Origin: Minisyncoccota bacterium
GTDB lineage: Bacteria; Patescibacteriota; Minisyncoccia; Phycocordibacterales; UBA9973
Direction: 5' to 3'
Assembly: GCA_035491955.1 (NCBI GenBank)
Contig: DATJJU010000015.1
Coordinates: 30,440-94,439, forward strand
DNA: 64,000 nucleotides
Positions 3 to 32,633 of the stretch are shown piece by piece. The number at the start of each line of letters is the position of its first letter. The stretch's first letter is position 1. The translations under genes were made by a program, and so were the position numbers. The notes beneath the pieces were generated by a model. That model saw only the letters and a list, made by a program, of their open reading frames with translations. It was not told the origin of the DNA and did no database searches.

Positions 3-2435
3 AATGCGCTTGATATTTGGGTTCGTGATTCTTTATTCCAAGACTGTTATTTTGGTATTACCAACGGATATGGTGCGGGTAATTTCCGTGCCTACAATAA
101 TATCTTCAGGAATTCTACATATGCCGATATTCAGATTGGTAATACCGGAGAATTTGCCATCCGCGACAATACTTCAACCGATTCCAATATGTTTCTGTTT
201 GCAAGTTTTACAGAAAATCCAGCAAGCATTGTCATGCAAGGCAATACTGTTATTGACTATACCTATACTAATGCCGTAAAAATCGAAGATCAGACAATTC
301 TGACAATGATTGATAATATATTCCGTTCTAGAGCCGATGCATATCCGCCAGTTTTACAGATCACAGGGTATCCAAGTTCCAATGCTACATTGATAGGCAA
401 CAGTTTCAGTCTTCCGAATCCTTACATTGGTCCGAATATTGTGGCATTCCGTAACGAAAGTGTGGATCGAACCAGTTATCCGATGGCAAATCTGCAAGAA
501 CAAATCTTGCCAGGTGTTCGTCCAAATTTTCATCGACAGATTTTCGAAGTACCTACTAATGCGACTACTGCTCAGATCCAGGCAGTTATTAATCAGGCAG
601 TACTAGTATCAGGCAATCGTCCTATCGTTCATATACCAACTGGTACCTATAGTATTAATTCAACCATTTATATTCCGGCTAATACCGATATTCAAGTAGT
701 TGGTGATGGATACGGTCTTGAGAACGGAACCATATTACGATGGACGGGGGCTATCAAAGGACCGATGATCTCTATTGCCGGACCAAGTAAAGCAACCTTA
801 CGCAATCTCACTGTCTGGGGAACAACAGCTACTTCAACTGGTGTCTTTATCGGCAATGCCGACCAGGTCGGAGCTCGAGTCTTTAGTGACCAGCGATTTA
901 GTATTGACTCTACAGGCTTGTTAATGAACCAGGATGATAATGCTGAATATATAGGCGAAGGAGATCAGTTTGCTGGTGAAGCAAAAGCGGTCAGTGTTAT
1001 TGGTGGACCGAAAGCTCAGGCCGGTACTCCTGCGGCTGGAAGAACAGTCATTTATGGAGGTGCAGAATCAGGAAATGCTATTTCTCACGAAGTTACTAAA
1101 AATGGCAACTTGATGATTCGAGATGTGTGGTATGAAGGCAATCCTTCAACTAGTGCTAATCTTATTGATACTGGTACCTATACTTCCGATAATAACCATA
1201 TTGCTCCTGATATTGCGACCAATACACCTTCTGTCGTTATTAATAACTTTAACGGTAGGGCAACATTTGTTGGCGGTGATCTCTCTGATCGTATCTCTCT
1301 CAGTGGTGATGGTACAAATACTAAATTACTCGGTCTCGGCATGTTTGTTGAACAAAAACCTTTCTTAGCCGATGCAAGTAATCCTAGTGCAAATGTAGAA
1401 TTATTGAATGGTCGTTTCCGTGAACAGGATGTGAATACGGGAAGTGGCAGTACTCCCATGCCTGACGTTGGGACGCTCGATCAGTCTTTCGTTACTTCCA
1501 TGTTGACCGACTTCCGAGCAATACATGAGATTACACTCGCTCCATTGGCAGACGGTATTAGCGATGTTCGTATGTTCAGAATAATGACTGTCGGTAATAT
1601 TAGAGGTGTTGATGTGGAGCCTGGCACTAATACGGTGAATAATGTAAAACCTATTCTTGATGCTGGCAGCGACCAAACATTGCAGCTGCCTGACCATCAG
1701 ACCGCTATTCTTGCTGCGACCGCTACGGACCCTGATGGCAAGATTGTTTCGTATAACTGGACTCAGCTAAGTGGACCAACTGACGACACTATTGTTACTC
1801 CGACTACTGCTGCAACAAATGTTATTAACATGAGAACCGATGGTACGTATGTTTTCCAAGTAACAGTAACCGATGATGGCGGTTCACAGACTACTGATAC
1901 AGTAAGTGTTACTGTCAGCGGTACACCTCACGACCTTTCTGGTGGTGGCGGCGGAGGGGGCGGGGGCTCCGGAGGAGGTGGCGGCGGAGGCGGAAGCCAA
2001 GTCCTTAGCACCACTGTTACTCCTTCGGTAGCAAGCGTGCTTACCACTTCTGCAATAGCTACTACTCCTGTTGCTGGCTGTACAGCAACCACTGCATTTA
2101 GTCCGCTGTCTGGTAAGCCTTGTCCAAATTATTCCGCAGGCATTACAGGAACTCTTTCTTCTATCCCAGTCTTTACCAAGACATTAAATCCAGGCGCTCA
2201 TGATCCTGAAGTGATTTTGATCCAACAATATTTGAATGCTCACGGCTTTACTGTAGCAAAAAGCGGTGTCGGTTCTGCTGGTAAAGAAAGCAGCTATTAC
2301 GGTCCGGCCACAAAAGCTGCTATTGCTAAGTACCAAACTGCCCACGCCAAAGACACTCTTGCTCCCGCTGGTCTCAAAAAAGCTACCGGCAACTTCGGCG
2401 CCCTGACCATGGCTGCCTTTAATAGAGGGGAGTAA
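3..2435 (+). CDS. 5'-partial large surface/cell-wall-associated protein: N-terminal parallel beta-helix (pectate-lyase-like) repeats, PKD/Ig-like domain, poly-Gly(Ser) linker, C-terminal peptidoglycan-binding (PG_binding_1-like) domain
   Basis: Reading frame 3 is open from the first base of the window (no stop before the listed Met at 189), so the gene starts upstream of the window. Repetitive N/T/G-rich beta-helix-like segments are present. A PKD-like segment reads 'KIVSYNWTQLSGPTDDTIV...YVFQVTVTDDGGSQTTDTVSVTVS'. A run of 18 Gly (plus 2 Ser) follows. The C-terminus 'VILIQQYLNAHGF...YGPATKAAIAKYQ' resembles PG-binding domains. Confidence 0.6.
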   Translation, partial: NALDIWVRDSLFQDCYFGITNGYGAGNFRAYNNIFRNSTYADIQIGNTGEFAIRDNTSTDSNMFLFASFTENPASIVMQGNTVIDYTYTNAVKIEDQTILTMIDNIFRSRADAYPPVLQITGYPSSNATLIGNSFSLPNPYIGPNIVAFRNESVDRTSYPMANLQEQILPGVRPNFHRQIFEVPTNATTAQIQAVINQAVLVSGNRPIVHIPTGTYSINSTIYIPANTDIQVVGDGYGLENGTILRWTGAIKGPMISIAGPSKATLRNLTVWGTTATSTGVFIGNADQVGARVFSDQRFSIDSTGLLMNQDDNAEYIGEGDQFAGEAKAVSVIGGPKAQAGTPAAGRTVIYGGAESGNAISHEVTKNGNLMIRDVWYEGNPSTSANLIDTGTYTSDNNHIAPDIATNTPSVVINNFNGRATFVGGDLSDRISLSGDGTNTKLLGLGMFVEQKPFLADASNPSANVELLNGRFREQDVNTGSGSTPMPDVGTLDQSFVTSMLTDFRAIHEITLAPLADGISDVRMFRIMTVGNIRGVDVEPGTNTVNNVKPILDAGSDQTLQLPDHQTAILAATATDPDGKIVSYNWTQLSGPTDDTIVTPTTAATNVINMRTDGTYVFQVTVTDDGGSQTTDTVSVTVSGTPHDLSGGGGGGGGGSGGGGGGGGSQVLSTTVTPSVASVLTTSAIATTPVAGCTATTAFSPLSGKPCPNYSAGITGTLSSIPVFTKTLNPGAHDPEVILIQQYLNAHGFTVAKSGVGSAGKESSYYGPATKAAIAKYQTAHAKDTLAPAGLKKATGNFGALTMAAFNRGE

Positions 2436-2575: not shown

Positions 2576-5500
2576 ATGTCTAAAACAAAAAATACGGACG
2601 TTCGTCCAAAGAAGTACTTTGCGAAGTACAAGAAACCATTTATAGAATTTCCAGATCTTATCCATCACCAGCGTGACTCATTCAATTGGTTGGTAGAAAA
2701 AGGTTTGACTGAAGTATTTAAGGAATTCACTCCTATTCAAGACTATTCTGGCAAGAAATTCCAACTCGACTTCGTATCATTCCATTTGTCTGAGCCGAAA
2801 TTCGATGAACACTATGCCAAGGAAAACAAGCTCTCACTCGAAACACAAATCAAAGCTCGCGTAAAACTCACCAACAAGCAAACTGGTTCTGAAAAGGAGC
2901 AAGAAATTTTCATGGCTGATCTTCCAGTTATGACTCCTCACGGCACCTTCATTATTAACGGTGTTGAGCGCTCAATCATTCCTCAGCTTTCTCGTTCAAG
3001 TGGTATTTTCTTTACTGAGCTTGAAGTGAAAGGCAAGCGCTACTTTGGTGCAAAAATTATTCCAAACCGTGGTGTCTGGATTGAAATCGAATCAGATCCC
3101 GATGGCTCTATATATGTACGTATCGACAAGAAGCGAAAGTTCCCAGCTGTTTCTTTGTTGCGCGCTCTTGGTCTTGAAAATGATGAAGCTATCAAGAAGC
3201 TTTTCAAGAATGAAGCTGCTGCAAAAATGATCGCTCACTCTATCGAAAAAGATCCTGCCAAGAATGCTAGTGATGCATTCGTAGAAATCTACCGTAAGCT
3301 CCGCGATGGCGACCTTGCTACTCCAGACAATGCTCGCGACTTCGTGAACAATCTCTTTTCTGAAGAGCGCTACGACCTTTCTCCAGTAGGACGTTTCCGC
3401 TTCAACAAGCGTTTCGGTCTCGACATGAGCGACAAGGAAATGGAGCGCAAGACTCTTTCTGCTCAGGATATTGCCATCATCCTCAGCAATATCGTTGAAC
3501 TCAACACTACTCCTGGCTCTCATGCTGATGATATCGACAACCTCGCGTCTCGCCGCGTTCGTTTCGTTGGTGAAATGCTTCAGCAGAAGATCTTCACTGG
3601 TTTGACTCAGATCAAGCGTAATGTGCAGGATCGCATGTCTACTATTGATGCATCAAATGCATTGCCTATTCAGGTGGTAAACCAGCGTCCATTGCAGGCT
3701 CGTATCAAAGAGTTCTTCACTACCAACCAGCTTTCACAATTCATGCAGCAGGATAACGTCTTGTCTGAAATTGAAGAATTGCGCATGTTGACCGCATTGG
3801 GTTCAGGCGGTTTGACTCGTGAGCGCGCAACATTGGAAGTGCGTGACGTGCACCCATCTCACTATGGCCGCGTCTGTCCTATTCAGACACCAGAAGGTCC
3901 AAACATTGGTTTGGTATTGCGTCTCTCTATCTACGCTCGCGTGAATGCCTTCGGTATCATCGAAACTCCATACGTCAAAGTAAAGAACGGTAAGATTACC
4001 GGCGAAGTGGAATACTTGAATGCTGCAGAAGAAGAAAAGTGCATTATTGCTCACGCAAGTAATGACTATGATGACAAGGGCAACCTTTCTGAAATGGTAG
4101 AAGCTCGTATTCGTACTAGTCCAGGCATCGTAAAAAAAGAAGAAGTGAACTACATTGACGTTGCTCCAAACCAGGCCTTCTCAGTCGGTACATCAATGAT
4201 TCCATTCGTTGATCACAACGATGCGAACCGTGCCTTGATGGGAAGTAACATGCAGCGACAAGCGGTGCCATTGATTCGTCCAGAAGCACCATTGGTTGGT
4301 ACTGGTGTAGAAGAAGCGGCAGCTCCATATTCAGGACGCCTTATCTTGGCTGAAGAAGCGGGAGAAGTCACTTATGTTGATGCTTCAAAGGTTACTGTCA
4401 AGAATGAAAAAGGGAAGGATAAGACTTATACTCTTGTTTCATTCCAGCGTAACAACAACTTCAATGCATTCCACCAGCGCCCAGTAGTGACACTTGGTCA
4501 GAAATTGAAAAAGGGAGATCTCATTGCTGACATGTCTACTACTGATCGCGGACAAATCGCGCTTGGTCAGAATATGTTCGTAGCATTCATGAGCTGGAAC
4601 GGTGCAAACTTCGAAGACGCTATCATTCTCTCAGAGCGTATTATCAAGGATTCAAAATTCACTTCTATTTATATTGCTGAGTTCGTGTCCGTTGTGCGCG
4701 ACACCAAGCTTGGTCCAGAAGTCACTACTCGTGATATTCCAAACGTTGGCGAAGCTCGCTTGAAGGACCTCGATGAAGACGGCATCATTCGCGTTGGTGC
4801 AGAAGTGAAGGAAGGCGACATCTTGGTAGGTAAGATTACTCCGAAAGGCGAGACAGAACTTACTCCTGAAGAGCGTTTGCTCCGCAGTATCTTCGCCGAA
4901 AAAGCTCGCGATGTGAAAGACACATCATTGAAGATGGATCACGGCAAGCGCGGACGTATTATTCGCGTAAAAGTATTCTCTCGCGATCAAGGACACACCC
5001 TTGAATCAGGTGTGATCAAGAAGATCGTTATTGAAGTCGCTCAGCTTCGAAACATTTCAGTCGGTGACAAGCTGGCTGGCCGCCACGGTAACAAAGGTGT
5101 TATCTCAGTGGTGCTCCCAGAAGAAGACATGCCATACATGGCAGATGGTCGTCCTGTTGATGTTGTGCTGACACCGCTTGGTGTGCCATCACGTATGAAC
5201 CTCGGACAAATTCTCGAATTGCACTTGGGTATGGCTGCAAACGAACTCGGCTATCAGGCCATTGTTCCTCCATTCGCAGGAGCAAGTGATATTGAAATCA
5301 AAGAAGAACTTGTGAAAGCAGGATTGCCAGAAAACGGTCGCGTGCCACTCTTTGATGGACGCACTGGTGAAAAATACGAACAGGATATTGCTGTGGGCTA
5401 CATGTACATCTTGAAGCTGCACCACATGGTCGAAGACAAAATCCACATGCGCTCAATTGGTCCATACTCTCTTATTACTCAGCAGCCATTGGGCGGTAAG

Positions 5501-5779
5501 GCACAAGGCGGTGGTCAGCGTTTCGGAGAAATGGAGGTCTGGGCATTGGAAGGATACGGCGCAGCGCATACGCTTCGCGAAATGCTTACTATTAAGTCCG
5601 ACGATATTCGCGGACGTGCAGCGACATTCGATGCCATTATCAAGAATGAGCCGATAGGTGAACCGAATGTTCCAGCCTCATTCTCGGTCATGTTGAATTA
5701 TCTCCGCGGATTGGCATTGGACGTTGAATTGATCAAGCCAGCACAGGTCGAGGAAGAAGAAGTTAATAACACCAAATAA
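2576..5779 (+). CDS. rpoB: DNA-directed RNA polymerase subunit beta
   Basis: 1067 aa. Conserved RpoB blocks are present throughout (e.g. 'GRHGNKGV', 'PFMxDG', 'NMQRQAVPL'). Confidence 0.97.
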   Translation: MSKTKNTDVRPKKYFAKYKKPFIEFPDLIHHQRDSFNWLVEKGLTEVFKEFTPIQDYSGKKFQLDFVSFHLSEPKFDEHYAKENKLSLETQIKARVKLTNKQTGSEKEQEIFMADLPVMTPHGTFIINGVERSIIPQLSRSSGIFFTELEVKGKRYFGAKIIPNRGVWIEIESDPDGSIYVRIDKKRKFPAVSLLRALGLENDEAIKKLFKNEAAAKMIAHSIEKDPAKNASDAFVEIYRKLRDGDLATPDNARDFVNNLFSEERYDLSPVGRFRFNKRFGLDMSDKEMERKTLSAQDIAIILSNIVELNTTPGSHADDIDNLASRRVRFVGEMLQQKIFTGLTQIKRNVQDRMSTIDASNALPIQVVNQRPLQARIKEFFTTNQLSQFMQQDNVLSEIEELRMLTALGSGGLTRERATLEVRDVHPSHYGRVCPIQTPEGPNIGLVLRLSIYARVNAFGIIETPYVKVKNGKITGEVEYLNAAEEEKCIIAHASNDYDDKGNLSEMVEARIRTSPGIVKKEEVNYIDVAPNQAFSVGTSMIPFVDHNDANRALMGSNMQRQAVPLIRPEAPLVGTGVEEAAAPYSGRLILAEEAGEVTYVDASKVTVKNEKGKDKTYTLVSFQRNNNFNAFHQRPVVTLGQKLKKGDLIADMSTTDRGQIALGQNMFVAFMSWNGANFEDAIILSERIIKDSKFTSIYIAEFVSVVRDTKLGPEVTTRDIPNVGEARLKDLDEDGIIRVGAEVKEGDILVGKITPKGETELTPEERLLRSIFAEKARDVKDTSLKMDHGKRGRIIRVKVFSRDQGHTLESGVIKKIVIEVAQLRNISVGDKLAGRHGNKGVISVVLPEEDMPYMADGRPVDVVLTPLGVPSRMNLGQILELHLGMAANELGYQAIVPPFAGASDIEIKEELVKAGLPENGRVPLFDGRTGEKYEQDIAVGYMYILKLHHMVEDKIHMRSIGPYSLITQQPLGGKAQGGGQRFGEMEVWALEGYGAAHTLREMLTIKSDDIRGRAATFDAIIKNEPIGEPNVPASFSVMLNYLRGLALDVELIKPAQVEEEEVNNTK

Positions 5780-5780
5780 T

Positions 5781-8700
5781 ATGAAAACATTAGACACAAC
5801 AAATTTTGATAAAATCTCTCTCAAGATCGCAAGTCCTGACGCTATTCGCGAATGGTCATATGGAGAAGTAACAAAACCGGAAACAATCAACTATCGTACT
5901 GGACGCAGTGAGCGCGGAGGCCTCTTCGATGAGCGCATCTTCGGTCCTGAAAAAGACTATGAATGTTATTGCGGTAAGTACAAGCGTATTCGTTACGCTG
6001 GTATTATCTGCGAAAAATGTGGCGTGGAAGTAACTATGGCTATCGTTCGCCGCGAACGCATGGGCCATATTGAATTGGCTTCTCCTGTTGCACATATCTG
6101 GTTCTTGCGTGGCGTACCGTCTCGTATGAGCATCTTGCTTAATGTTTCTCTCAGTGACTTGGAAAAGGTTGTCTACTTTGCCGGCTACATCATTACTACT
6201 GTGCATGAAGACGAACGAGAGCGCATCGTAGCTGAACTTGATGCTGAATTTAAGAACAAGCTCAAGAATGCTGCCGATGAAGACACTCGCGAAAAGTTGC
6301 GCACCCTCCTCACTAATACAAAAAAGGAAATTGCAGAAATCCGCGTTGGTAAGGTATTGAATGAAATCTCATATCACCACTACTCATTGAAGTATGGTTC
6401 TGCATTTGAAGCCGGTGTTGGTGCTGAACCAATTTACCAGCTCTTCAAAGAAATGGATCTTCACAAGCTTAAGGAGTCTACAGAAAAGATGCTTGAAAAG
6501 GCTGGCGCAGCAGAACGTGAAAAGCTTCACAAGCGTTTGTCACTCGTGCGCGGCATGATCTATGCAAACATTCGCCCTGAATGGATGTTCCTCACTGTTA
6601 TTCCAGTTATTCCTCCAGCCATCCGTCCGATGGTGGCATTGGAAGGTGGCCGTCATGCTACTTCCGATATCAACGACCTCTATCGTCGCGTGATCAACCG
6701 AAACAATCGTTTGAAGAAATTGAAAGAAATCGGCGCTCCAGATGTGATCTTGCGTAACGAAAAGCGTATTTTGCAAGAAGCAGTAGACGCATTGATCGAC
6801 AACTCTATCGCCGGACAAGACAGTCCTGCTATGAGTCAGGCTCAGCGTCGTGCGTTGAAGTCTTTGTCAGACAACTTGAAGTCAAAACAAGGTCTCTTCC
6901 GTCAGAACTTGCTCGGTAAGCGTGTTGACTACTCAGCCCGCTCTGTGATCGTTGTTGGTCCGACCCTTCGTTTGAATCAATGCGGTCTTCCAAAGCATAT
7001 GGCCTTGGAACTCTTCCGCCCATTCGTAATCTCAAAGATCATTGAACAAGAGCTTGCGTACAACATTCGCGGTGCCAACAAACTCATCGAAGATGGTATT
7101 CCAGAAGTCTGGGCTATCTTGGAAGAAGTGATCAGAGGCAAGTACGTTATGTTGAACCGTGCTCCGACCTTGCACCGTCTTGGTATTCAGGCCTTCATGC
7201 CAGTATTGGTTGAAGGTAATGCGATCAAGGTGCACCCACTCGTTTGTCCTGCGTTCAACGCCGACTTCGACGGTGACCAAATGATGGTGGCATTGCCTCT
7301 CTCTGATCTTGCTCAAAAGGAAGCGCGTGAATTGATTGCCGCTGACAAGAATATCTTGAAGCCTCAAAACGGTGACTCAATCGTGTCATCAAAAATGTTG
7401 GACATTGTCCTCGGCTGTTACTGGATGACTACTGCTATTGATGGTCAAAAAGGCGAAGGCATGTACTTTGCAAGTCCAAATGAAGCGATCACTACGAACG
7501 ACTTTGATGCTGTTTCTCTTCGTGCCAAGATCAAAGTCTTGGGTACTCAGAAAGGCAAGTACGCTGCGTTTGAAAACAAGCCATTCGAAACAACTATCGG
7601 ACGACTGCTCTTCAATGCAGTATTGCCAAGTGACTTCCCATACATGAACGAAGATATGACTGGTAAGAAAATGGCCGGTGTCGTGGATTCATTGATTGCG
7701 AAATACGGAGTAGACCTTGTCGCTCCAATGCTCGACCGCATTAAGGACTTCGGATACAAGTACGCTACTCGTTCAGGTACAACATGGAGTATTGATAATG
7801 TTATTGTGCCAAAAGAAAAGCCAGCTATCATTGCCAAGTACAAACAGCTTGAAGCCGACATTCGCTCACAGTTCGAAGAAGGTTTGCTTTCTGAAGACGA
7901 GCGCTATGAAAAGGTTATCTCTAACTGGAATAAGGCAAAGAATGAGATTGAAAAAATCTTGCCTGATACTATCGAGAAGCACGGTTCTGTCTATGATATG
8001 GTCATCTCTGGCGCCCGAGGTTCTATGAGTAACGTTACTCAGATGGCGGGTATGAAAGGTTTGATTCAAAACACAACCGGTCGTACTATTGATTTCCCAA
8101 TCATTCCATCATTCAAGGAAGGTCTTTCACCGCTTGAATACTTCATTACTACTCACGGTTCACGTAAAGGTCTGGCCGACACAGCATTGAACACTGCTCG
8201 TGCTGGTTACCTTACTCGTCGTCTTGTTGATGTCTCTCAGGATATCGTGATCACTGAAGAAGACTGTGGAACAAAAGGCGCAAAGCGCATGACTCCTGAA
8301 GTCATCTCTGGTTTGGAAATTCCATTGAGCAAGAGTATTCGTGGACGCGTTTTGGCCAAGGATCTTGTTACAGAAAGCGGTGAAGTGCTCTTCAAGCGTG
8401 GACACCTGCTCGGCAAAGATGATGTAGCATTGGTGGAAGAAAAAGGTGTGAAGGAAGCATATGTTCGTACTCCAATGATATGTAAGACTATCTACGGTAT
8501 TTGTCGACAGTGTTACGGTCTTGATCTCGGACGTAACCACCTTGTCAATCGCGGTGAAGCGGTTGGTATCGTGGCGGCGCAAGCGATCGGTGAGCCAGGT
8601 ACTCAGTTGACTCTTCGTACATTCCACGCCGGCGGTTTGGCAGGTGTCGACATTACATCAGGTCTTCCTCGTGTTGAAGAAGTCTTTGAATGTCGCATTG

Positions 8701-9404
8701 TTAAGAATCCTGCAGCCGTCAACAAGTATGCCGGTACTGTTTCAGAAATTAAAGACAATGCAGGTGAGAAGACTATCGTTGTACTCTCAAACAAAGACAG
8801 TGATGCTAAGAAAGATTCTGTTGAATACACTGCAGGTCCTCGTCGTGTGCCAATCGTAAAAGTGGGGCAAGAAGTAGCGAAGGGCGAATTGCTCACAGAC
8901 GGTTCTGCAAACGTTGAAGAAGTGTATGAATACGGCGGACGTGAAGCAGCGGAAGATTACATTATTCGTGAAATTATCAAAGTGTATGAATTGCAGGGTG
9001 CATCTATTGCCCGCAAGCACTTGGAAATCATCGTTCGTCAGATGTTCTCACGCCGCAAAGTGAAGGATGCTGGAGATACTTCATTCTCACCAGGAGATGT
9101 TATTGAGGCAACCGAGCTCATGGAAGAAAATGCTCGCATGCGTGCAACCGGCCTCAAGGAAGCAAAGGGCGCGCTCATTATCTTGGGTATTACTCAGACT
9201 GCATTGAATGCCAAGAGTTGGATCTCTGCCGCTTCATTCCAGAACACAAACCGTGTCCTCATCACCAACGCTGTGAAGGGCGGTACTGACACACTTCGCG
9301 GTCTTAAGGAAAACGTAACTGTCGGACGATTGATCCCGGCTGGTACAGGCTTCCGCGAGCGCAGTGCTCTCGACATCAACAATATTAAGTTTGACGAGGA
9401 ATAA
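5781..9404 (+). CDS. rpoC: DNA-directed RNA polymerase subunit beta'
   Basis: 1207 aa. A Zn-finger '[23 protein letters not shown]' and the catalytic 'NADFDGDQM' motif are present. The start is 1 nt after the rpoB stop. Confidence 0.97.
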
Positions 9405-9406
9405 GA

Positions 9407-11143
9407 ATGGATAACAGGCTGTTCGAACAAATAAAGAATCGCCTGCCTATCACCGAAGTCCTGTCTACCTATATCACGCTGGAACCATCTGGATCTCAGT
9501 ATAAGGCTCGATGTCCCTTTCACAATGAAAAGACTGCGTCGTTTTCGGTCTCACCGGAACGCGGTCTTTACTATTGCTTCGGCTGTGGAGCAAAAGGAGA
9601 CATCTTTAACTTTGTTGAACAATTCGAAGGTGTAGATAGAAAAGGTGCGCTGAAGATATTAGCCGATAGGGCAGGTATTCCACTTACCGCATATCGTACT
9701 ACTGATGACTCATCAGATAGTCTATATGATGCAATGGAAAGTGCTACAAAAAAATATACCACTATCTTGCAAAGTAATACTGAGGCAGTGAACTATCTCA
9801 AGCAGAGAGGGGTAAACGATCAAACTATTGAAGAATTTCGCTTAGGCTATGCTCCGACTGAATGGCGCACACTCTCTTCGAGTCTTGATCAAAAAAGCGC
9901 AGGATTCTATGAACAAGCTGGCCTTGTAAAGAAAACGGAGAAAGGATATTACGACAGATTTCGTGGACGCATTATCTTTCCTATGGCAGACAGCAGTGGC
10001 CGTATCGTGGCATTTTCAGGAAGAATTTTTCCTGAAACGCCCAAAGGAGTCCAAGAGGGGCCGAAATATCTTAATAGTCCAGAAACGGAACTATTCCAAA
10101 AGTCTCGCATACTCTTTGGTTTTGATAAAGCCAAAGCTGCTATTAAAAAACATAACTTTGTCATCTTAGTGGAAGGACAGATGGATCTTATTCTCAGTCA
10201 TCAAGCCGGATTTAAAAATACTGTTGCCACATCTGGTACTGCTGTATCCGAAACCGTTATCGGTGATACAGGTGCGCAGCTCTCGGTGATTGCGCGCCTC
10301 ACACCAAATATCTTCTTAGCATTCGATGGAGACAGTGCCGGACAAAAAGCCCTTGAACGTGCAGCTCTTGTCACATTGTCGCTCGGTATGAATCCAAAAG
10401 TGGTAGCGCTACCGGAAGGTATGGATCCAGCAGATTTTATTGGTGTCGGAGGTCCTGAGCAAAGCGAAGCGTGGAAAGAATTATTGAAAAAAGCTGAACA
10501 CTTTATTCCGCATGTTTTGCATAGTATTCAGCAGGCTAGCACGTCTGCTCATCAATTGAAGCACGCTATTCGTACCAGACTTTTTCCATTTCTCTTGCGC
10601 GTTCAATCAGCAATCGAAAGAAATGTGTATCTTAATCTCATTGCTTCTGAATCAAGCCTTGGTATTAAGGAGGTGAATGATGACTTTTCTAGCTTTATGC
10701 AAGAGAATCAAAAAGAGAAGCAAAATGAATATAATCAAAAAGAAGCAATCGCCATACCTGATGCATTCATCCGCAAGCCCATTAGTCATAGCGAGCGCTT
10801 CATGTCTATCGTGGAAGTGTATCCGGATGAAATGGCAAAAAGCTATCACACAAACCTCGCAAACTATCGCTTCAATAATACACCGATTGATCTTCCTTTG
10901 TTTGAGGGAGATCACAAGGATCGGGCAATCGCTATCATTGAAAGAGAGCTTGCAGGCCTTGATGAAAACCAAAGAGAGGAAATTTTGAAGGAATTGCACG
11001 ATACTATTATTGCGCAATTCTTGGAGCAATTGCGTTTTGAATACGCCATGAAGATGAGCGAGGCGAAACGACAGGGGAATGAGGAAGAAGAACTACAGTA
11101 TCTAGCGCTTCTTCAGAAGATTCACCAGCAATTGAAGATTTGA
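9407..11143 (+). CDS. dnaG: DNA primase
   Basis: 578 aa. A CHC2 zinc finger ('[13 protein letters not shown]...[11 protein letters not shown]') and a Toprim region ('ILVEGQMDL', 'DGDSAGQKA') are present. The gene starts 2 nt after the rpoC stop. Confidence 0.9.
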
Positions 11144-11189
11144 CTTTTTCCATTATTTAAAGGATGATACGAAAAGCATTTTAAAAAGT

Positions 11190-12503
11190 ATGCCAAAAAA
11201 ACCCGTTAAGAAATCACAACCAAAGAAAGCAGTAAAGAAGGCGACCGCCTCAAAAAAGACCCAGCTGGCAAAGGGTAAAAAGCCAGCAAAGAAAACAGTC
11301 GTTAAGAAGACTGTAAAAAAAGCAAAAGTTGTGAAGCCAGTAAAAAAGGCTGCTACTCCTCCTAAGAACAAACCAAAACCAATCACGATTCGTCATGCCG
11401 GTACTGCTCCGCGTCGCGAAAACAATAGTGAGAAGAAAATAAAAGAAATGGAAGTAAAGTCCCAAGAGCTTATTGTCAAAGGCAAGAAGCGCGGCTTTAT
11501 TACGTATGATGAAATTTTAAAAACATTCCCGGATATTGAAAACAATATCATGTTCCTCGATGAACTGTACGAAAAGTTCAGCGTAGCAGGCATTGATATT
11601 TTGGAAGGTGGAAATCTGCTCGATATCGATAGCAATGAAGACCTTTCAAAATATGTCAAAGACAGCCACAGTTTCAGTTCGGTGCAAATGTATTTGAAGG
11701 ATATCGGACAGTACCCATTGATCAATGCGGCTCAAGAAAAAGAGTTTGCGAAGCGTATCGCAGCCGGAGACTTGGAAGCAAAGAATCTGCTTGCTCGTTC
11801 AAACTTGCGCTTGGTAGTGTCCATTGCCAAGAAGTACGCTAACCGTACCGCTGACCTGACATTGCTTGATCTTATTCAAGAAGGAAACATCGGGCTCTTT
11901 AAGGCAGTTGAAAAGTTTGACTATACCAAAGGCTTTAAGTTCTCAACCTATGCGACATGGTGGATCAGACAATCAATCACTCGTGCACTGGCTGACCAGT
12001 CACGTACCATTCGTATCCCTGTGCACATGGTAGAAACTATTTCTAAGTATAAACAGGTCATGCGTCGTTTGGCACAAGACTTAGGCCGTGATCCAATGCC
12101 GGAAGAAATTGCAAATGAAATGGGTATCGAAGTTGAGAAAGTTCATGTTATTGAGCAGATCAACCAAGAGACTCGTTCATTAGAGTCTCCGATCGGTGAC
12201 GATGAAGACAAGTCTACATTTGGTGAGTTCATTGCCGATGATAAGATTCTTCGTCCTGACCAGGAAGCCAGTCGTCGCATGCTGCAGGATGCTATCCGCG
12301 CCGTGCTTGAAGAGCTTTCTCCAAAAGAGAAGCGTATCCTTGAAATGCGCTACGGTTTGATTGACGGTGTACAGCACACCCTCGAAGAAGTCGGTAAAGA
12401 GTTTGGTGTCACTCGCGAACGTATTCGTCAAATCGAAGCCAAAGTTCATGAAAAGCTTCGCCAAAACGACCGCATCCAACGCCTCCGCAACTATTTCGAC
12501 TAA
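11190..12503 (+). CDS. rpoD: RNA polymerase primary sigma-70 factor with a ~70-aa lysine-rich (histone H1-like) N-terminal tail
   Basis: Regions 2-4 are conserved ('[10 protein letters not shown]', 'TYATWWIRQ', region 4 HTH '[19 protein letters not shown]'). The N-terminus '[23 protein letters not shown]...' consists of KKxx repeats instead of an acidic region 1.1. Confidence 0.9.
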
Positions 12504-12542: not shown

Positions 12543-12572
12543 CAAAAGCCGTCCAATCAGGGACGGCTTTTG
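12543..12572. terminator. bidirectional intrinsic terminator between convergent rpoD and dsbA-like genes
   Basis: Hairpin AAAAGCCGTCC-aatcag-GGACGGCTTTT with a U-tract on both strands. A second perfect palindrome, CCATAGG-aaatt-CCTATGG, lies at about 12506-12524. Confidence 0.6.
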
Positions 12573-12589: not shown

Positions 12590-13360
12590 TTACTTCAAAA
12601 GGGAATCGATATCCTTCTCAACCGCATCAAGAGGGTATGAACCAGGAATAATGATTTGTTTGCCGGTCTTGGTATTTACGATAATGCTGAATGGCGTACC
12701 TTGCGCGCCGATTGATTCAGATTCTTTTATACTTGCGTCAATTGTTGCACTAGTTGCTGGATTAGCAACACAAGTATTGAAGGCATTCTTATCAACACCT
12801 TGTTCAGATGCGAATGTTGCTAATGTGTTGAAAGTGTCTTTCGTAGGAGAAAGGGTAACATTCATAATGGCATCAAGAAAACCGTTAAATGCTTTTGCTC
12901 CGCCAAGCTGACCGACACAATCTAGGGCCTCTGCTTCATTATGAGAGTCCGGGTGAATATCAAGAGGGAAGTAGCGATACACCCATGCCACTTTTCCTTT
13001 GTAGTCTTTCACCACCTGTTGAAGGACGGGGTGAAATTGCTGACAGAACGGACAGTCACTGTCAGAGTATTCGAAGATCAAAATTTGCGCATTTGCATCC
13101 CCGCGGATATGCGCCATATCGCTCGCGCGAAGAGTGGTAACGCTGGCCGGAATACTTGTCGGGGTCGTAGGTGCTGAGCCTGCCGTATTGCCTGTAGCGC
13201 TAGTACTTCCTGATGGATGTAAAGCGATAATAAGCGCTAATGCGATCATTGCTGCGCCCGTTACTATTGCAGCCGCAATAGTAAGAGGGGCTTTGCTCTT
13301 TATTTGTGTCTCTTGCTGCTGAATTTCAACAGGCTGTTCTTGATTTTCTTGTGGTTCCAT
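12590..13360 (-). CDS. membrane-anchored DsbA-family thiol:disulfide oxidoreductase (thioredoxin fold)
   Basis: An N-terminal TM helix is followed by a thioredoxin-like domain carrying the CPFC active site ('DSDCPFCQQFHPV'). Confidence 0.7.
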   Translation of the reverse strand: MEPQENQEQPVEIQQQETQIKSKAPLTIAAAIVTGAAMIALALIIALHPSGSTSATGNTAGSAPTTPTSIPASVTTLRASDMAHIRGDANAQILIFEYSDSDCPFCQQFHPVLQQVVKDYKGKVAWVYRYFPLDIHPDSHNEAEALDCVGQLGGAKAFNGFLDAIMNVTLSPTKDTFNTLATFASEQGVDKNAFNTCVANPATSATIDASIKESESIGAQGTPFSIIVNTKTGKQIIIPGSYPLDAVEKDIDSLLK

Positions 13361-28267: not shown

Positions 28268-28365
28268 TATTCTATTGTTTTGTATTCCTATTGTTTATAG
28301 CACAGTATTAGAAAAAAGTTGACTTTTGTGGTATAATGGGTGCCGTGGAAAAAGGAAGGAGAAAA

Positions 28366-30984
28366 GTGGAGAGTGCGGCTGAGACCATTGTAGTTAAAGG
28401 TGCCCGTACTCATAACCTTAAAAATATTAGTGTAGAAATGCCTCGTAATGCCATGGTGGCTATTACGGGAATGTCAGGTTCAGGCAAGAGTTCCTTAGCA
28501 TTTGATACTATTTTTGCAGAAGGCCAACGTCGATACGTTGAGTCGCTCTCTTCTTATGCGCGGCAATTCTTGAACCAAATGCCAAAGCCTGATGTTGATG
28601 AGATCACCGGTCTCTCACCAGCCATCTCTATCGACCAAAAATCTCGCTCAAACAACCCCCGCTCAACAGTTGCGACTATTACCGAGATCTATGACTATCT
28701 TCGCGTGTTGTATGCTCGTGTTGGTAAGGCATACTGTCCTGTTTGTGGCACTCTGATTCAGAAGCTTTCGATGGAAGAAATTAATGGATTCATTCTGGAC
28801 AAGATCAAGGATCTTTCTAAAGCAAAGAATAAAGAAGTCATGGGTGTTGCATGGAACGATACTCGCATTCAGATTTATGCGCCTGTTGTTCGCGGACGAA
28901 AAGGTGAGTACTACCAGTTGCTTTACGATTTGCTCGGACGTGGCTTTTCTACCGTACGTGTTGATGGGCAGCTCAAGAGTCTCCGTGAGCGCATTGAAAT
29001 GAATAAGACTACTCCGCACACTATTGAAGTATTGGTGGACGAACTTGCTGTGCACGAATTCAAAGATACTCCTCGTGATGCAGAGCTTCGCTTATCAGAA
29101 GCGGTAGAACGTGCTCTCTTGGAAGCTGATGGTTTGGTGCAAGTAACATTTGGCACGTCGCCAGATTTCTCAATGGATACAGACTTGCTACAAGAATTTC
29201 TTCTTTCAAGTAAATTTGCTTGTCCAAATGACGGCTTCTCATTTCCAGAAATTGAACCGCGACTCTTTTCATTCAACAGTCCGTATGGCGCATGTCCTAC
29301 CTGTAATGGTATCGGTACAAAGTTTTTTGGCGGCACAGAACCGTGTGAGACCTGTCACGGCAAGCGCTTGCGCCCTGAGGCATTGAATGTTTTTCTCGGA
29401 GAGCATTCTGCTACAAAGCACGGTCAGAATATTGTTGATGTAACAAGTATGTCTGTAGAAGAAGCGTTTGATTTCTTCGTATCATTGAAACTCTCTTCAA
29501 AAGATAAGGAGGTTGCTCGAGCAGTATTGAAGGAAATCGAAGACCGCCTGAATTTCTTGCTGAATGTTGGTCTGGAATACTTGGCGCTCAGTCGTACCGC
29601 AAATACTCTTTCTGGCGGAGAAGCACAGCGTATTCGTTTAGCTTCACAGCTTGGTTCACGTCTCGTGGGGGCAATGTACGTCTTGGATGAGCCAACCATT
29701 GGTCTGCACCAGCGCGACAATGAACGCTTGATCCGTACGCTCGAAGACTTGCGCGATATCGGCAACACTATTCTTGTTGTCGAGCACGATGAGGATACTA
29801 TTTTTGCATCAGACTATATTGTTGATATCGGTCCAAAAGCTGGAGTGCATGGCGGAGAAGTGGTGGTGTCAGGCTATCTCGATAAATTGCTTGCAGCGAA
29901 AACTAATCCTTCTGGTTCGCGAACGCTCGCATATCTCCGAAAGGAAGAGCAGATAGAAGTGCCGGAGAAGCGGCGAGATGATGACAAGGGCACTATTAAA
30001 GTCGTCGGAGCAAATCTTCACAATATTCATAATCAAAACATTGATGTACCGCTCGGACGCATGGTAGCAATCACTGGCGTGTCAGGTTCAGGGAAAAGTA
30101 CATTCTTGTACGATATTTTGTATAGCAATCTTCAGGCTCGCTTTGAACGTAAAATGCGCAGTGCGAAGACATTTAATTGCGCGTCATTTACAGGCAGTGA
30201 ATACTTAGCGCGCGCTATTCTTATTGATCAATCGCCGATCGGCCGTACGCCGCGTTCAAACATTGCTACATACACTGGAGCGTTTACCCATATTCGCGAG
30301 CTCTTTGCTTCCACCGAAGAAGCGCGCTTGCGCGGCTGGAAAGTAAACCGCTTCTCCTTCAATGTTAAAGGCGGACGCTGTGAAGCGTGTGAAGGCAATG
30401 GTGAAATTGCCGTAGAGATGCACTTCTTGCCGACTGTCTATGTGACGTGCGATGTCTGCGGAGGAAAGCGCTTCGATAAAGAAACCCTAACAGTGAAATA
30501 CAAGCGCAAGAGCATTTACGATGTCTTGCAATTGACCGTAGAAGAAGCTATGGAATTCTTCCAGGATATTCCAGCTATTTCAGATCGCCTTACAACACTG
30601 AATGACGTTGGTCTTGGCTATGTGAAGCTTGGACAAAGTGCTACCACGCTTTCTGGTGGCGAAGCGCAGCGCGTAAAGATTGCCTCAGAACTGTATCGCC
30701 CATACCTTGAAAAGACTATTTACCTGCTCGATGAGCCAACTGTTGGCTTGCACTACGATGATGTGAAGAATCTTATCGGTGTTTTGAATCGTCTTGTTGC
30801 CAAAGGAAACACTGTTGTTGTGATCGAACACAATCTTGATCTGATCAAAGCTGCCGACTGGCTGATCGACTTCGGCCCCGAAGGTGGAGTTCACGGTGGT
30901 AAAATCGTTGCTAAAGGCACACCTGAAGCTGTCGCCAACAACAAAAACTCCTTCACTGGCCATTATCTAAAGAAAATTTTATAA
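28366..30984 (+). CDS. uvrA: excinuclease ABC subunit A
   Basis: Two ABC ATPase modules and Zn fingers are present. I chose the GTG start at about 28366 (RBS AGGAAGGAG 5 nt upstream; N-terminus 'MESAAETIVVKGARTHNLKN'). The track's ATG at 28336 sits inside a TGgTATAAT extended -10 box. Confidence 0.92.
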   Translation: MESAAETIVVKGARTHNLKNISVEMPRNAMVAITGMSGSGKSSLAFDTIFAEGQRRYVESLSSYARQFLNQMPKPDVDEITGLSPAISIDQKSRSNNPRSTVATITEIYDYLRVLYARVGKAYCPVCGTLIQKLSMEEINGFILDKIKDLSKAKNKEVMGVAWNDTRIQIYAPVVRGRKGEYYQLLYDLLGRGFSTVRVDGQLKSLRERIEMNKTTPHTIEVLVDELAVHEFKDTPRDAELRLSEAVERALLEADGLVQVTFGTSPDFSMDTDLLQEFLLSSKFACPNDGFSFPEIEPRLFSFNSPYGACPTCNGIGTKFFGGTEPCETCHGKRLRPEALNVFLGEHSATKHGQNIVDVTSMSVEEAFDFFVSLKLSSKDKEVARAVLKEIEDRLNFLLNVGLEYLALSRTANTLSGGEAQRIRLASQLGSRLVGAMYVLDEPTIGLHQRDNERLIRTLEDLRDIGNTILVVEHDEDTIFASDYIVDIGPKAGVHGGEVVVSGYLDKLLAAKTNPSGSRTLAYLRKEEQIEVPEKRRDDDKGTIKVVGANLHNIHNQNIDVPLGRMVAITGVSGSGKSTFLYDILYSNLQARFERKMRSAKTFNCASFTGSEYLARAILIDQSPIGRTPRSNIATYTGAFTHIRELFASTEEARLRGWKVNRFSFNVKGGRCEACEGNGEIAVEMHFLPTVYVTCDVCGGKRFDKETLTVKYKRKSIYDVLQLTVEEAMEFFQDIPAISDRLTTLNDVGLGYVKLGQSATTLSGGEAQRVKIASELYRPYLEKTIYLLDEPTVGLHYDDVKNLIGVLNRLVAKGNTVVVIEHNLDLIKAADWLIDFGPEGGVHGGKIVAKGTPEAVANNKNSFTGHYLKKIL

Positions 30985-31694
30985 AAAACAGCGACCTGGT
31001 CGCTGTTTTAATTTTAATTTATCTACCTTTGCTAGACTCATTTTTAATGAGAAAACAGAAGTTTGGGGTTGGTGAAAAATTTCACGTATTTAATAGAGGT
31101 GTTGATAAAAGACATATTTTTTTAGATAAGAATGATGTCGAAAGATTCCTGCTTTGCATGAAAATCTTTAATGATGTAGAGCTGTCTGGAAGTCTCAAGA
31201 AAGCACTTTCTAAAAAGTATATGAAAAGCGACGCAGTTCCGCTGGTTAATTTTATTGCACATTCACCCGAGATAAATCATTTCCACTTTATCCTTGAAGA
31301 AGCGGTGGAAAATGGAATTAGTAAATTTATAAAAAGAGTAACTGGTGGCTATGCCTGGTACTTTAATAACAAATACAAAAGATCAGGTACTTTATTTGAA
31401 TCTCCTTTTAAAGCAAAACATATTGGATCAAACGAGTACTTATTATATGTAAGTGCCTATGTAAATCTAAATGATCAACAAAAACAATACAGCGACCTGG
31501 TCGCTGGAATATCTAGCTGGGGGGAATATAAGACTAATAAGCCCACATTCTGTACTCATAAACATCTTGTACTTGATCAATTCGAATCGCCGGAAGATTA
31601 TGAAAGGTATGCCTTAGAAGTGCTTGAACAGGTAAAACTTAACAAGCAAAGATATAAACTTTTAGATCTATAAAAAACAGCGACCTGGTCGCTG
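30982..31694 (+). mobile_element. REP/RAYT-like unit: IS200-like HUH Y1 transposase bracketed by three copies of a palindromic repeat
   Basis: TAAAAAACAGCGACCTGGTCGCTG occurs at 30982-31005 and at 31671-31694. A diverged copy (CAGCGACCTGGTCGCTG) lies at 31490-31506 inside the ORF. The TAA of the repeat provides the stop codons of both uvrA and the transposase ORF. Confidence 0.6.
31029..31673 (+). CDS. IS200/IS605-family Y1 (HUH) transposase, REP-associated tyrosine transposase (RayT, COG1943)-like
   Basis: N-terminus 'FHVFNRGVDKRHIFLDKNDVERFL', HUH motif 'NHFHFIL', and a Tyr-containing helix 'WYFNNKYKRSGTLFESPFKAKHI...YLLYVSAYVNLN'. Confidence 0.65.
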   Translation: MLDSFLMRKQKFGVGEKFHVFNRGVDKRHIFLDKNDVERFLLCMKIFNDVELSGSLKKALSKKYMKSDAVPLVNFIAHSPEINHFHFILEEAVENGISKFIKRVTGGYAWYFNNKYKRSGTLFESPFKAKHIGSNEYLLYVSAYVNLNDQQKQYSDLVAGISSWGEYKTNKPTFCTHKHLVLDQFESPEDYERYALEVLEQVKLNKQRYKLLDL

Positions 31695-31733: not shown

Positions 31734-32633
31734 TTGTATGCTAGGGGCATGATGTCATTCGAAGAATTTAAACAGTGGTTTGATCAGCAATTTTTTGCAT
31801 TATTAGAAGAGAAAGGGAATGAGTTTGCGTCATATAGCAATGAGGCAAGCATAAAAGATATTGTTTCGTATATCTCAGTATTTGCCAAAGGAGGGAAGCG
31901 CTTGCGACCATATATGGCATATGTTGGATATGTTACAGAAGGCGGAGAGCATGATCTGTTTGAGTTGTTCGCAAGCATTGAGCTCCTTCATTTATTCTGT
32001 CTTGTGCATGACGATATCATGGACAATGCCTTTGCTCGTCATAACACCAAAACTATTCACGAGAAGTTTGATAGATCGATTGCTATTCTTGCCGGAGATT
32101 TGCTCTTAGCCTGGTCATTTGAATGCATGCAGGTCGTGGCAGAGTATGAGCCATACACGAGCGATGATGCAATGAAAGAATATAATCTTTTATTGAAAGA
32201 AGTGATACACGGTCAAATGCTTGATGTATTGCCTACGAGCACTACTCCCACAAAAGAACTCTTGGAAAAAGTTATTGAATTGAAAACAGCTCGCTATTCT
32301 TTTTACCGTCCACTTGCACTCGGCATGATATTGGCTGGCGGCGATGAAGAAGCGCTTGATTTCGCTAAGAGCTTTGGCGTTCAGATCGGTATAGCATTTC
32401 AGCTTATTGATGATCTCTATGACTGGCAGGATGATAAGAAAAATGGCCAGCACACCATGGTGACATGGTATGAAAATGCCCACCCTGATGATTCGCCTCA
32501 AGATATTCGTCATCATATCCAAGCGCTTATTGCCAACGCTGTAGAAGAGGCTCAAGAAGCCATATATGCTGCTAATAAAGACTCAGATCCGGTCTGGGAG
32601 GAAATTGTTGATCGATTTGGTATACTGAGGTAA
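31734..32633 (+). CDS. trans-polyprenyl diphosphate synthase (FPP/GGPP/long-chain type)
   Basis: First Asp-rich motif 'LVHDDIMD' and second 'FQLIDDLYD'. The start may be the internal ATGATG at about 31749. Confidence 0.85.
   Translation: MYARGMMSFEEFKQWFDQQFFALLEEKGNEFASYSNEASIKDIVSYISVFAKGGKRLRPYMAYVGYVTEGGEHDLFELFASIELLHLFCLVHDDIMDNAFARHNTKTIHEKFDRSIAILAGDLLLAWSFECMQVVAEYEPYTSDDAMKEYNLLLKEVIHGQMLDVLPTSTTPTKELLEKVIELKTARYSFYRPLALGMILAGGDEEALDFAKSFGVQIGIAFQLIDDLYDWQDDKKNGQHTMVTWYENAHPDDSPQDIRHHIQALIANAVEEAQEAIYAANKDSDPVWEEIVDRFGILR

Follow-up and report, generated by a model that had tools for sequence, protein, structure and literature searches.

Extra, not exchanged: a lysine-rich disordered tail in front of region 1.1 in the primary sigma factor of a Minisyncoccota bacterium

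In primary sigma factors promoter loading is under the control of region 1.1 and the N-terminus, and it is region 1.1 that sets group 1 sigma factors apart. What, then, is to be made of a primary sigma factor that begins with some sixty residues rich in lysine and devoid of acidic side chains? The question is raised by a 64,000-nucleotide stretch of DNA from a Minisyncoccota bacterium (GenBank assembly GCA_035491955.1, contig DATJJU010000015.1, positions 30,440 to 94,439; hereafter the window), in which a 437-amino-acid open reading frame (ORF), 11190..12503 on the plus strand, encodes RpoD/SigA, the primary sigma factor, in a genome of the Paceibacteria/Nomurabacteria type. The initial annotation of this locus held that a histone H1-like tail stands in place of the acidic, auto-inhibiting region 1.1, and that this segment of the opposite charge should bind DNA non-specifically and alter the way in which free sigma and holoenzyme engage DNA. 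Here we report that the tail is present as described, but that it has been added to a complete sigma factor and not exchanged for one of its regions. Taken as a whole, we lean, if only slightly, towards a complete primary sigma factor with an extra polycationic, disordered tail that acts as a non-specific electrostatic tether for nucleic acid.

Is the protein a genuine primary sigma factor, and is any part of it missing? Pfam finds all of the sigma-70 regions in the translated ORF, in order and each above its gathering score:

residues 92-142: Sigma70 r1_1 (PF03979), E 1e-11, 45.1 bits against a cut-off of 22.5
residues 164-195: Sigma70 r1_2, 49.5 bits
residues 201-273: Sigma70 r2, 76.1 bits
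residues 282-358: Sigma70 r3, 77.8 bits
residues 372-425: Sigma70 r4, 60.5 bits
11679..12503, plus strand: regions 1.2, 2, 3 and 4 with the stop codon (Pfam; best NCBIfam models RpoD/SigA)

The protein is a group 1 sigma-70 factor: it has every region including 1.1 and it is syntenic with dnaG, and only the curated NCBIfam equivalog cut-offs are missed. Its top NCBIfam models are RpoD/SigA equivalogs, with scores (PRK09210, 418 against 572 bits; TIGR02393 RpoD_Cterm, 342.9 against 354 bits) that suit a divergent phylum better than a different family, and the nearest public proteins bear the labels Candidatus Nomurabacteria, Paceibacterota or Patescibacteria. The Firmicute SigA model PRK09210 (370 residues) pairs its positions 4-370 with residues 79-437; because this alignment begins at residue 79, the first 78 residues are extra to what, by its domain matches, is a complete Firmicute-like architecture of regions 1.1, 1.2, 2, 3 and 4. 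A further sigma model, NF004564 (PRK05901.2-2), aligns with residues 16-434, far under its cut-off (258 against 617 bits).

The segment that was thought to have been lost is thus plainly recognisable. Two features make up the part of the protein between the tail and region 1.2:

11463..11615, plus strand: region 1.1 by Pfam (residues 92-142); the folded unit covers about residues 78-138
11616..11678, plus strand: acidic linker (residues 143-163), disordered, that joins region 1.1 to region 1.2; net charge -3, with AlphaFold2 confidence (predicted local distance difference test, pLDDT) below 50 at residues 140-162

Residues 86-140 align to the solved region 1.1 of Thermotoga maritima (2K6X, E 3.2e-5) and Bacillus subtilis (5MWW, E 3e-4), and they also match the full-length SigA chains of Clostridioides difficile and B. 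subtilis (7L7B, 7CKQ). AlphaFold2, supplied with an alignment of 37 family members, predicts a compact fold for residues 78-138 at a pLDDT of about 80 (helices 78-101, 106-112 and 120-132; strands 103-105 and 136-138). As in the canonical domain of Escherichia coli sigma-70, T. maritima and B. subtilis, region 1.1 is mildly acidic, the net charge of region 1.1 and the linker together (residues 92-163) being -7. The proposed replacement is contradicted by all of these observations, that is the Pfam match, the structural matches, the predicted fold and the charge. It is near certain that the order is cationic tail, canonical mildly acidic region 1.1, acidic linker and regions 1.2-4, with the tail added and not substituted. 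Since the tail precedes an intact and mildly acidic region 1.1, an inverted or lost auto-inhibition of free sigma has no basis. The position of the tail nonetheless separates this protein from the canonical chains: in the two solved region 1.1 chains, 72 and 76 residues long, the alignment starts at residue 6 or 14, in the SigA chains 7L7B_F and 7CKQ_F at residue 4 or 15, and with starts as early as these region 1.1 occupies the N-terminal end of the deposited chains or comes close to it, whereas the window sigma factor carries about 75 extra cationic residues ahead of it.

The extra segment itself consists of two parts:

11190..11372, plus strand: lysine-rich disordered tail (residues 1-61; 25 lysines, no aspartate or glutamate, net charge +25; disorder by AlphaFold2; no Pfam family)
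11373..11462, plus strand: clade-specific conserved junction (residues 62-91), the second half of which is the start of the first region 1.1 helix

The lysine-rich peptide quoted in the initial annotation is the exact translation from 11190. The first 61 residues comprise 25 lysines and no arginine, and given a lysine content of 6.9% in the long ORFs of the window, at least 25 lysines in 61 residues would arise with a binomial probability of 7e-14. Ten KK doublets are spaced 4-9 residues apart. The calculated isoelectric point is 9.65 for the whole sigma factor and 5.68 without the first 78 residues. Among all ORFs of at least 80 amino acids on both strands of the window, no other has a net charge of +13 or above over 40 residues (the sigma factor reaches +18); the cationic segment is therefore specific to this gene and not the outcome of a proteome-wide bias. 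The tail is predicted to be disordered by AlphaFold2, which gives residues 1-76 a pLDDT below 50 and the tail no secondary structure; low confidence thus extends through residue 76, inside the junction, and the first helix begins at residue 78. With the tail alone as query, Pfam returned no family even at E values up to 10, and phmmer against the PDB returned no sigma chain, only a chance match to a restriction endonuclease (E 0.88). The segment is best described, on the predicted structure, as an extra stretch of about 60-75 residues ahead of region 1.1, disordered and strongly polycationic.

The comparison with histone H1 is partly apt. Linker histone H1 and HupB tails act as non-specific DNA clamps, and the tails of H1, of chlamydial Hc1/Hc2 and of HupB/HupS are, like that of the window sigma factor, disordered polycations with about 40% lysine on nucleic-acid-binding proteins. 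Unlike these, the sigma factor has no winged-helix H15 domain, no HU domain and no linker-histone or HC2 match in Pfam, and its tail is rich in valine (12%, as common as alanine at 11%) besides alanine and proline. The likeness is therefore one of composition, and the sequence comparisons offer no basis for homology.

Whether the lysine-rich region is translated at all is a question that has to be settled before any function is discussed. The gene start and its surroundings include the following features:

9407..11143, plus strand: dnaG, primase (Pfam Zn_ribbon_DnaG, DNAG_N and Toprim), directly upstream of rpoD
11140..11168, plus strand: promoter-like site, TTGACT-17 nucleotides-GATGAT, found by consensus scan; its -10 box ends 21 nucleotides before ATG 11190
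11153..11386, minus strand: mirror ORF, Phe/Leu/Thr-rich low-complexity translation of the Lys-codon-rich plus strand
11250..11465, minus strand: mirror ORF of the same kind

ATG 11190 is the first ATG, GTG or TTG after the in-frame stop at 11133-11135, and as no start codon lies between the two, the tail is not internal to a longer ORF. The opposite concern, that the region is an untranslated 5' leader and the protein starts at Met87 (11448) or later, was the alternative that the initial annotation itself had put forward with a start near residue 85-90. We regard it as very improbable. It could appeal to the lack of a Shine-Dalgarno motif within 20 nucleotides of ATG 11190, but most genes in the window lack one likewise, and the missing motif is for that reason uninformative; more distant relatives that share the tail do have a GGAG motif 6-7 nucleotides before the ATG of the lysine-rich segment (loci L025, L029, L031, L033 and L039; 13 nucleotides in L025). 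It could also appeal to the NCBI annotation of a homologue from Candidatus Lloydbacteria, which starts only after the basic tail (360 instead of 454 residues). What largely refutes it is the comparison across species. The frame remains open, lysine-rich and free of frameshifting indels in 77 species, the start of the tail is conserved among homologues as 'MP(N/T/K)KK' or 'MKKK', and the position of Met87 is occupied by methionine in 56 and by leucine in 60 of 118 homologues. No methionine at all occurs in the 30 residues ahead of region 1.1 in 52 of these 118 proteins, and the next one (Met121) already falls inside region 1.1. The promoter-like box, moreover, sits upstream of ATG 11190 and not upstream of Met87; we infer that it acts as a promoter. 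A similar box, TTGAC[AT]-N17-(A/G)ATGAT, precedes the tail ATG by 11-21 nucleotides in 16 of the 20 nearest species-level genomes, a count that describes the data and is not an independent test, the pattern having been written after the sequences had been viewed. On these comparisons of sequence the tail is almost certainly translated. The minus-strand ORFs between 11153 and 11465 are artefacts and not genes, as had been supposed: they are mirrors of AAA and AAG codons, and the plus-strand frame is the one conserved in the 77 species.

Two side observations concern the same region. The -35 box TTGACT (11140..11145) includes the dnaG stop codon TGA (11141..11143), so that the end of dnaG and the promoter-like site of the sigma gene physically overlap, an arrangement common to the nearest relatives. 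Further, many long ORFs without a Shine-Dalgarno motif, for example those starting at 32633, 45195, 41078 and 31749 on the plus strand and at 13360 and 54064 on the minus strand, have a -10-like or extended -10 box (TGnTAnnnT) that ends about 6-10 nucleotides before the ATG, which suggests that leaderless or very-short-leader mRNAs are common in this genome.

How is the tail maintained across the lineage? We fetched 80 loci from species-representative genomes, 78 of which had a recognisable region 1.1 anchor; 77 were readable upstream and one was interrupted by masked bases. In all 77 the frame is open upstream of region 1.1 and the N-terminus is lysine-rich, with 39-108 residues (median 78), 26-54% lysine (median 42%) and a net charge of +18 to +41. 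Of the 120 closest proteins, almost every one likewise begins with a lysine-rich N-terminus, and the presence of the tail throughout the lineage is thereby established. Averaged over the 77 species the tail consists of 40% lysine, 12% valine, 11% alanine and 8% proline, and aspartate and glutamate together make up 1.6% of its residues against 12% in the proteins of the window. This composition is coupled to a rapidly changing sequence. In the nearest species the protein is 99% identical from the GKKRGF motif to the C-terminus, while the tails are 52-73% identical with 9-25 gap positions and a lysine content of 29-53%. Conservation of the junction motif, (K)PKPITI(R/K)H.G..PRRE.N.EKK, is confined to the nearest homologues (about 110, and loci L001-L020); more distant tailed relatives have other sequence in its place. 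Such a pattern is, as far as alignments can tell, the signature of a disordered region that is selected for composition, charge and approximate length and not for sequence. One candidate for a tail-less near relative, a protein of 364 residues (P0124), was rejected; it is cut by the end of its contig, and its upstream frame is open and basic.

Poor conservation of sequence and length, together with many indels, would also be found if the tail were a tolerated, functionless low-complexity expansion that arose by replication slippage or A-rich drift at a permissive N-terminus, and the lack of a Pfam family and the omission of the tail by some gene callers agree with this. The signs of such an origin are missing at the DNA level. 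Tandem Repeats Finder reports no tandem repeat under the tail, which is accordingly not a recent slippage array; AAA and AAG stand at 13:13 among the lysine codons of the tail, against 300:299 elsewhere in the window, and because the two ratios are equal the tail is not a product of poly-A slippage either. The GC content of the window is 37-47%, and no other ORF in its 64 kilobases (kb) contains a comparable segment. Over longer times, the cores of the 77 tailed species have diverged to about 70-80% identity, despite which lysine is held at 26-54% and acidic residues remain almost excluded, and no loss of the tail was found among the sampled species. We therefore rate a functionless expansion as quite unlikely. 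A converse idea, that AAG is preferred in the tail as a guard against poly-A slippage, was also discarded in view of the 13:13 ratio.

Is the tail then unique to this lineage? Within the window it is the only segment of its kind, and in that limited sense the singularity attributed to it holds; beyond the window it does not. To survey primary sigma factors widely without letting the tail influence the ranking, we took the core alone (residues 79-437) as query against 1.84 billion cluster representatives. Among the 150 best, diverse primary-sigma clusters, 31 possess a 40-residue window with a net charge of at least +12 upstream of region 1.2. These include Candidatus Lloydbacteria and metagenome-assembled genomes labelled Clostridia or Bacilli, and the occurrence of basic N-termini in many unrelated sigma clusters is in keeping with a permissive site, as a functionless expansion would have it. 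Pfam analysis of ten proteins with a basic N-terminus placed a region 1.1 match after the basic segment in nine, six of them above the gathering score. The Lloydbacteria protein (OGZ11819.1; locus L082, MHLN01000015.1) illustrates how such tails escape notice. The NCBI gene call of 360 amino acids leaves a 312-nucleotide 'intergenic' gap after dnaG, yet at 1189..1560 of this locus the sigma frame continues open and Lys/Arg-rich, basic from 'MKKKNTHVSKKRKG...' directly after dnaG, and alternative gene calls for the cluster give 454 amino acids. The order dnaG-rpoD is the same at this locus as in the window. Since public gene calls sometimes cut them off, basic sigma tails are under-counted. Our literature searches returned nothing on sigma factor tails in Patescibacteria.

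Basic segments in primary sigma factors are nevertheless known from other phyla. Lysine repeats are over-represented in the DNA-binding proteins of Streptomyces, among them the housekeeping sigma factor HrdB, and confer DNA binding on TopA; HrdB and the RpoD of Bordetella pertussis are listed among the lysine-repeat proteins, and for these repeats the authors suggest ties with DNA binding and with GC-rich genomes (Strzalka et al. 2017, PMC5714199). The repeat of HrdB has been proposed to aid its interaction with DNA by analogy with TopA, HupS and Ku (PMC5714199; PMC7398561), and the lysine-rich tails of Ku and of mycobacterial HupB are required for DNA interaction (PMC7398561). With the actinobacterial tails of TopA, HupS/HupB, Ku and HrdB the window tail shares clustered lysines, few or no acidic residues and a DNA-binding host protein. 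It does not follow the association with GC-rich genomes (PMC5714199), its window having a GC content of 37-47%; contrary to that earlier suggestion, lysine-rich sigma tails are not confined to such genomes. In B. pertussis RpoD, according to PMC5714199, lysine repeats occur in a primary sigma factor outside the Actinobacteria.

HrdB differs from the window sigma factor in the placing of its repeat. In the Streptomyces protein (P0285) residues 75-162 contain 21 lysines and have a net charge of +19, and Pfam reports a weak r1_1 match at 18-78, HC2 (PF07382) at 77-161 with 34 bits, below the cut-off of 40, and region 1.2 at 213. As the repeat comes after a region 1.1-like domain and before region 1.2, it belongs to the linker between the two, while the window tail is located at the extreme N-terminus, before region 1.1. 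The HrdB repeats are also regular (A/T)AKK units with a resemblance to HC2, whereas the window tail has no Pfam match. Most Streptomyces HrdB proteins have HC2 among their precomputed annotations, and a paper on HrdB acetylation contained no text on the repeats or on region 1.1.

A further parallel is sigma-A of Mycobacterium tuberculosis, likewise a primary sigma factor with a disordered basic N-terminal segment that is followed by an acidic segment before region 1.2. In this protein (PDB 5UH5, chain F) residues 1-103 include 15 lysines and 8 arginines and have a net charge of +19, after which comes a very acidic stretch with a net charge of -46; the corresponding values in the window sigma factor are +25 (residues 1-61) and -7 (residues 92-163). 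The two tails differ in lysine content, 15% in an Ala/Thr/Ser/Pro/Arg-rich segment against 41%, and no similarity of sequence between them was detected. They differ too in what follows, since the acidic part of sigma-A is a disordered stretch of about 120 residues that its authors describe as non-homologous to E. coli region 1.1 (PMC11888270), while the window sigma factor has a folded and recognisable region 1.1 after its tail. According to a 2025 preprint, deletion of sigma-A residues 1-205 cuts the steady-state Vmax about 100-fold, with holoenzyme recycling raised by the authors as a possible basis of the effect, and earlier work cited there found that a deletion of residues 1-179 did not complement in vivo (PMC11888270). 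The tail thus belongs to a known class of basic disordered extensions on primary sigma factors.

What could such a tail do in front of an intact region 1.1? In the E. coli holoenzyme region 1.1 sits in the channel for downstream DNA, from which it has to be expelled on formation of the open complex. We propose that the tail would serve as a flexible, non-specific electrostatic tether for nucleic acid. A polycation at the N-terminus of region 1.1 could keep free sigma and the holoenzyme on or near DNA, and this proximity might speed both promoter search and sigma recycling; the tail could in addition assist DNA in pushing region 1.1 aside and make the loaded complex more stable. Auto-inhibition by region 1.1 would be kept and not reversed. 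Polyanions are the obvious partner because the charge of +18 to +41 comes with an exclusion of acidic residues, and the free drift of sequence and length argues against a defined protein-docking surface. The precedents, namely TopA, HupB, Ku and possibly HrdB along with the loss of activity upon deletion in sigma-A, point the same way by analogy. For the specific part of this proposal, that the tethered nucleic acid is DNA, the analogies leave us about evenly divided.

Several points weigh against this proposal. The tether mechanism is inferred from charge, position and analogy, and the placing of the N-terminus of region 1.1 with respect to DNA is assumed from what E. coli structures generally show. 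Across 51 species the charge of the tail does not correlate with that of region 1.1 or of the core (rho -0.15, p 0.28) and so offers no clue to the partner. The start at residue 1 is derived from the sequence, and in some relatives the public annotation begins only after the tail. Finally, the deletion in M. tuberculosis sigma-A removes the basic and the acidic halves together (PMC11888270), for which reason its effect is not assignable to the basic part.

The same charge data bear on the notion that the partner of the tail is the polymerase itself. As an intramolecular or intra-holoenzyme electrostatic regulator the tail would fold onto the acidic region 1.1, the linker or other surfaces of sigma, beta or beta-prime, and would tune the masking of DNA-binding regions by region 1.1, channel occupancy or core binding. 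A tail of net charge +25 does adjoin a region 1.1 and linker of net charge -7, the most acidic 40-residue window of the operon (net charge -11) lies in region 3/4 of the sigma factor itself, and the succession of basic and acidic segments recurs in M. tuberculosis sigma-A. Sigma N-terminal regions are moreover known to affect core binding and the responses to factors (PMC11888270). On the other hand the charge of the tail in the different species far exceeds that of region 1.1 and the linker (-4 to -11), no covariation of the two is seen among the 51 species, and beta and beta-prime have no strongly acidic insertion, their most acidic windows reaching -7. The drift of the tail also fits a diffuse polyanion such as nucleic acid better than a defined surface. 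Such a regulator we deem unlikely.

Polylysine disordered regions bind RNA as readily as DNA, and a tail that binds the nascent transcript, ribosomal RNA, ribosomes (for coupling) or a 6S-like RNA, or that drives nucleic-acid condensates, has to be weighed as well. The apparent leaderless or short-leader mRNAs of this genome would suit it, since with such mRNAs early contact of the ribosome with the initiation complex might be important. Against it, Rfam detects no structured RNA under the lysine-codon region or near rpoD, the window holding only five tRNAs, and the published lysine-repeat precedents concern DNA; we give this idea little credence. More far-reaching is the thought that the Paceibacteria-type sigma factor doubles as a nucleoid-associated, DNA-coating protein which its tail keeps resident on the chromosome. 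We put it forward as a long shot. If it were true, the sigma factor would take over roles of the CarD/RbpA stabilisers, of the contacts between the C-terminal domain of the alpha subunit and UP-elements, or of abundant histone-like proteins, an adaptation to the scarcity of transcription factors in minimal genomes, and the many other lineages with basic sigma N-termini would possibly share this double role. The sigma cycle of free cytoplasmic protein, holoenzyme and release would then differ across a large part of the bacterial tree.

Returning to the sigma factor with its proposed nucleic-acid tether, its value lies in offering a clean natural case: a cationic tail conserved in composition on a sigma factor that is in other respects compact and canonical, in organisms whose regulatory repertoires are minimal, attached at the very terminus through which promoter loading is controlled. 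The practical consequence is modest, in that the annotation and its interpretation are corrected and no new kind of system is added.

The remaining features around rpoD and elsewhere in the window are as follows:

2576..5779, plus strand: rpoB, 1067 amino acids
5781..9404, plus strand: rpoC, 1207 amino acids
12543..12572, both strands: terminator-like hairpin with a perfect 12-base-pair stem, between rpoD and the convergent DsbA-like gene
12590..13360, minus strand: DsbA-like gene, convergent with rpoD
189..2435: 748-amino-acid protein with a K319L-like PKD domain and a C-terminal peptidoglycan-binding domain
28336..30984: uvrA, within a uvrB-uvrA...uvrC neighbourhood
31029..31673: Y1 transposase-domain ORF, IS200-like (PF01797, E 4.6e-6), between uvrA and a polyprenyl synthetase gene

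The genes rpoB, rpoC, dnaG and rpoD are arranged head to tail on one strand (2576..12503) with intergenic gaps of 1-46 nucleotides. The catalytic RNA polymerase subunits, the primase and the primary sigma factor are thus united in a single cluster, and both polymerase subunits are compact. Behind the stem at 12543..12572 a T-rich run follows on each strand, strongest on the minus strand, and the element resembles a bidirectional terminator. The product of 189..2435, judged by its domains, is possibly a surface or cell-wall-associated protein.

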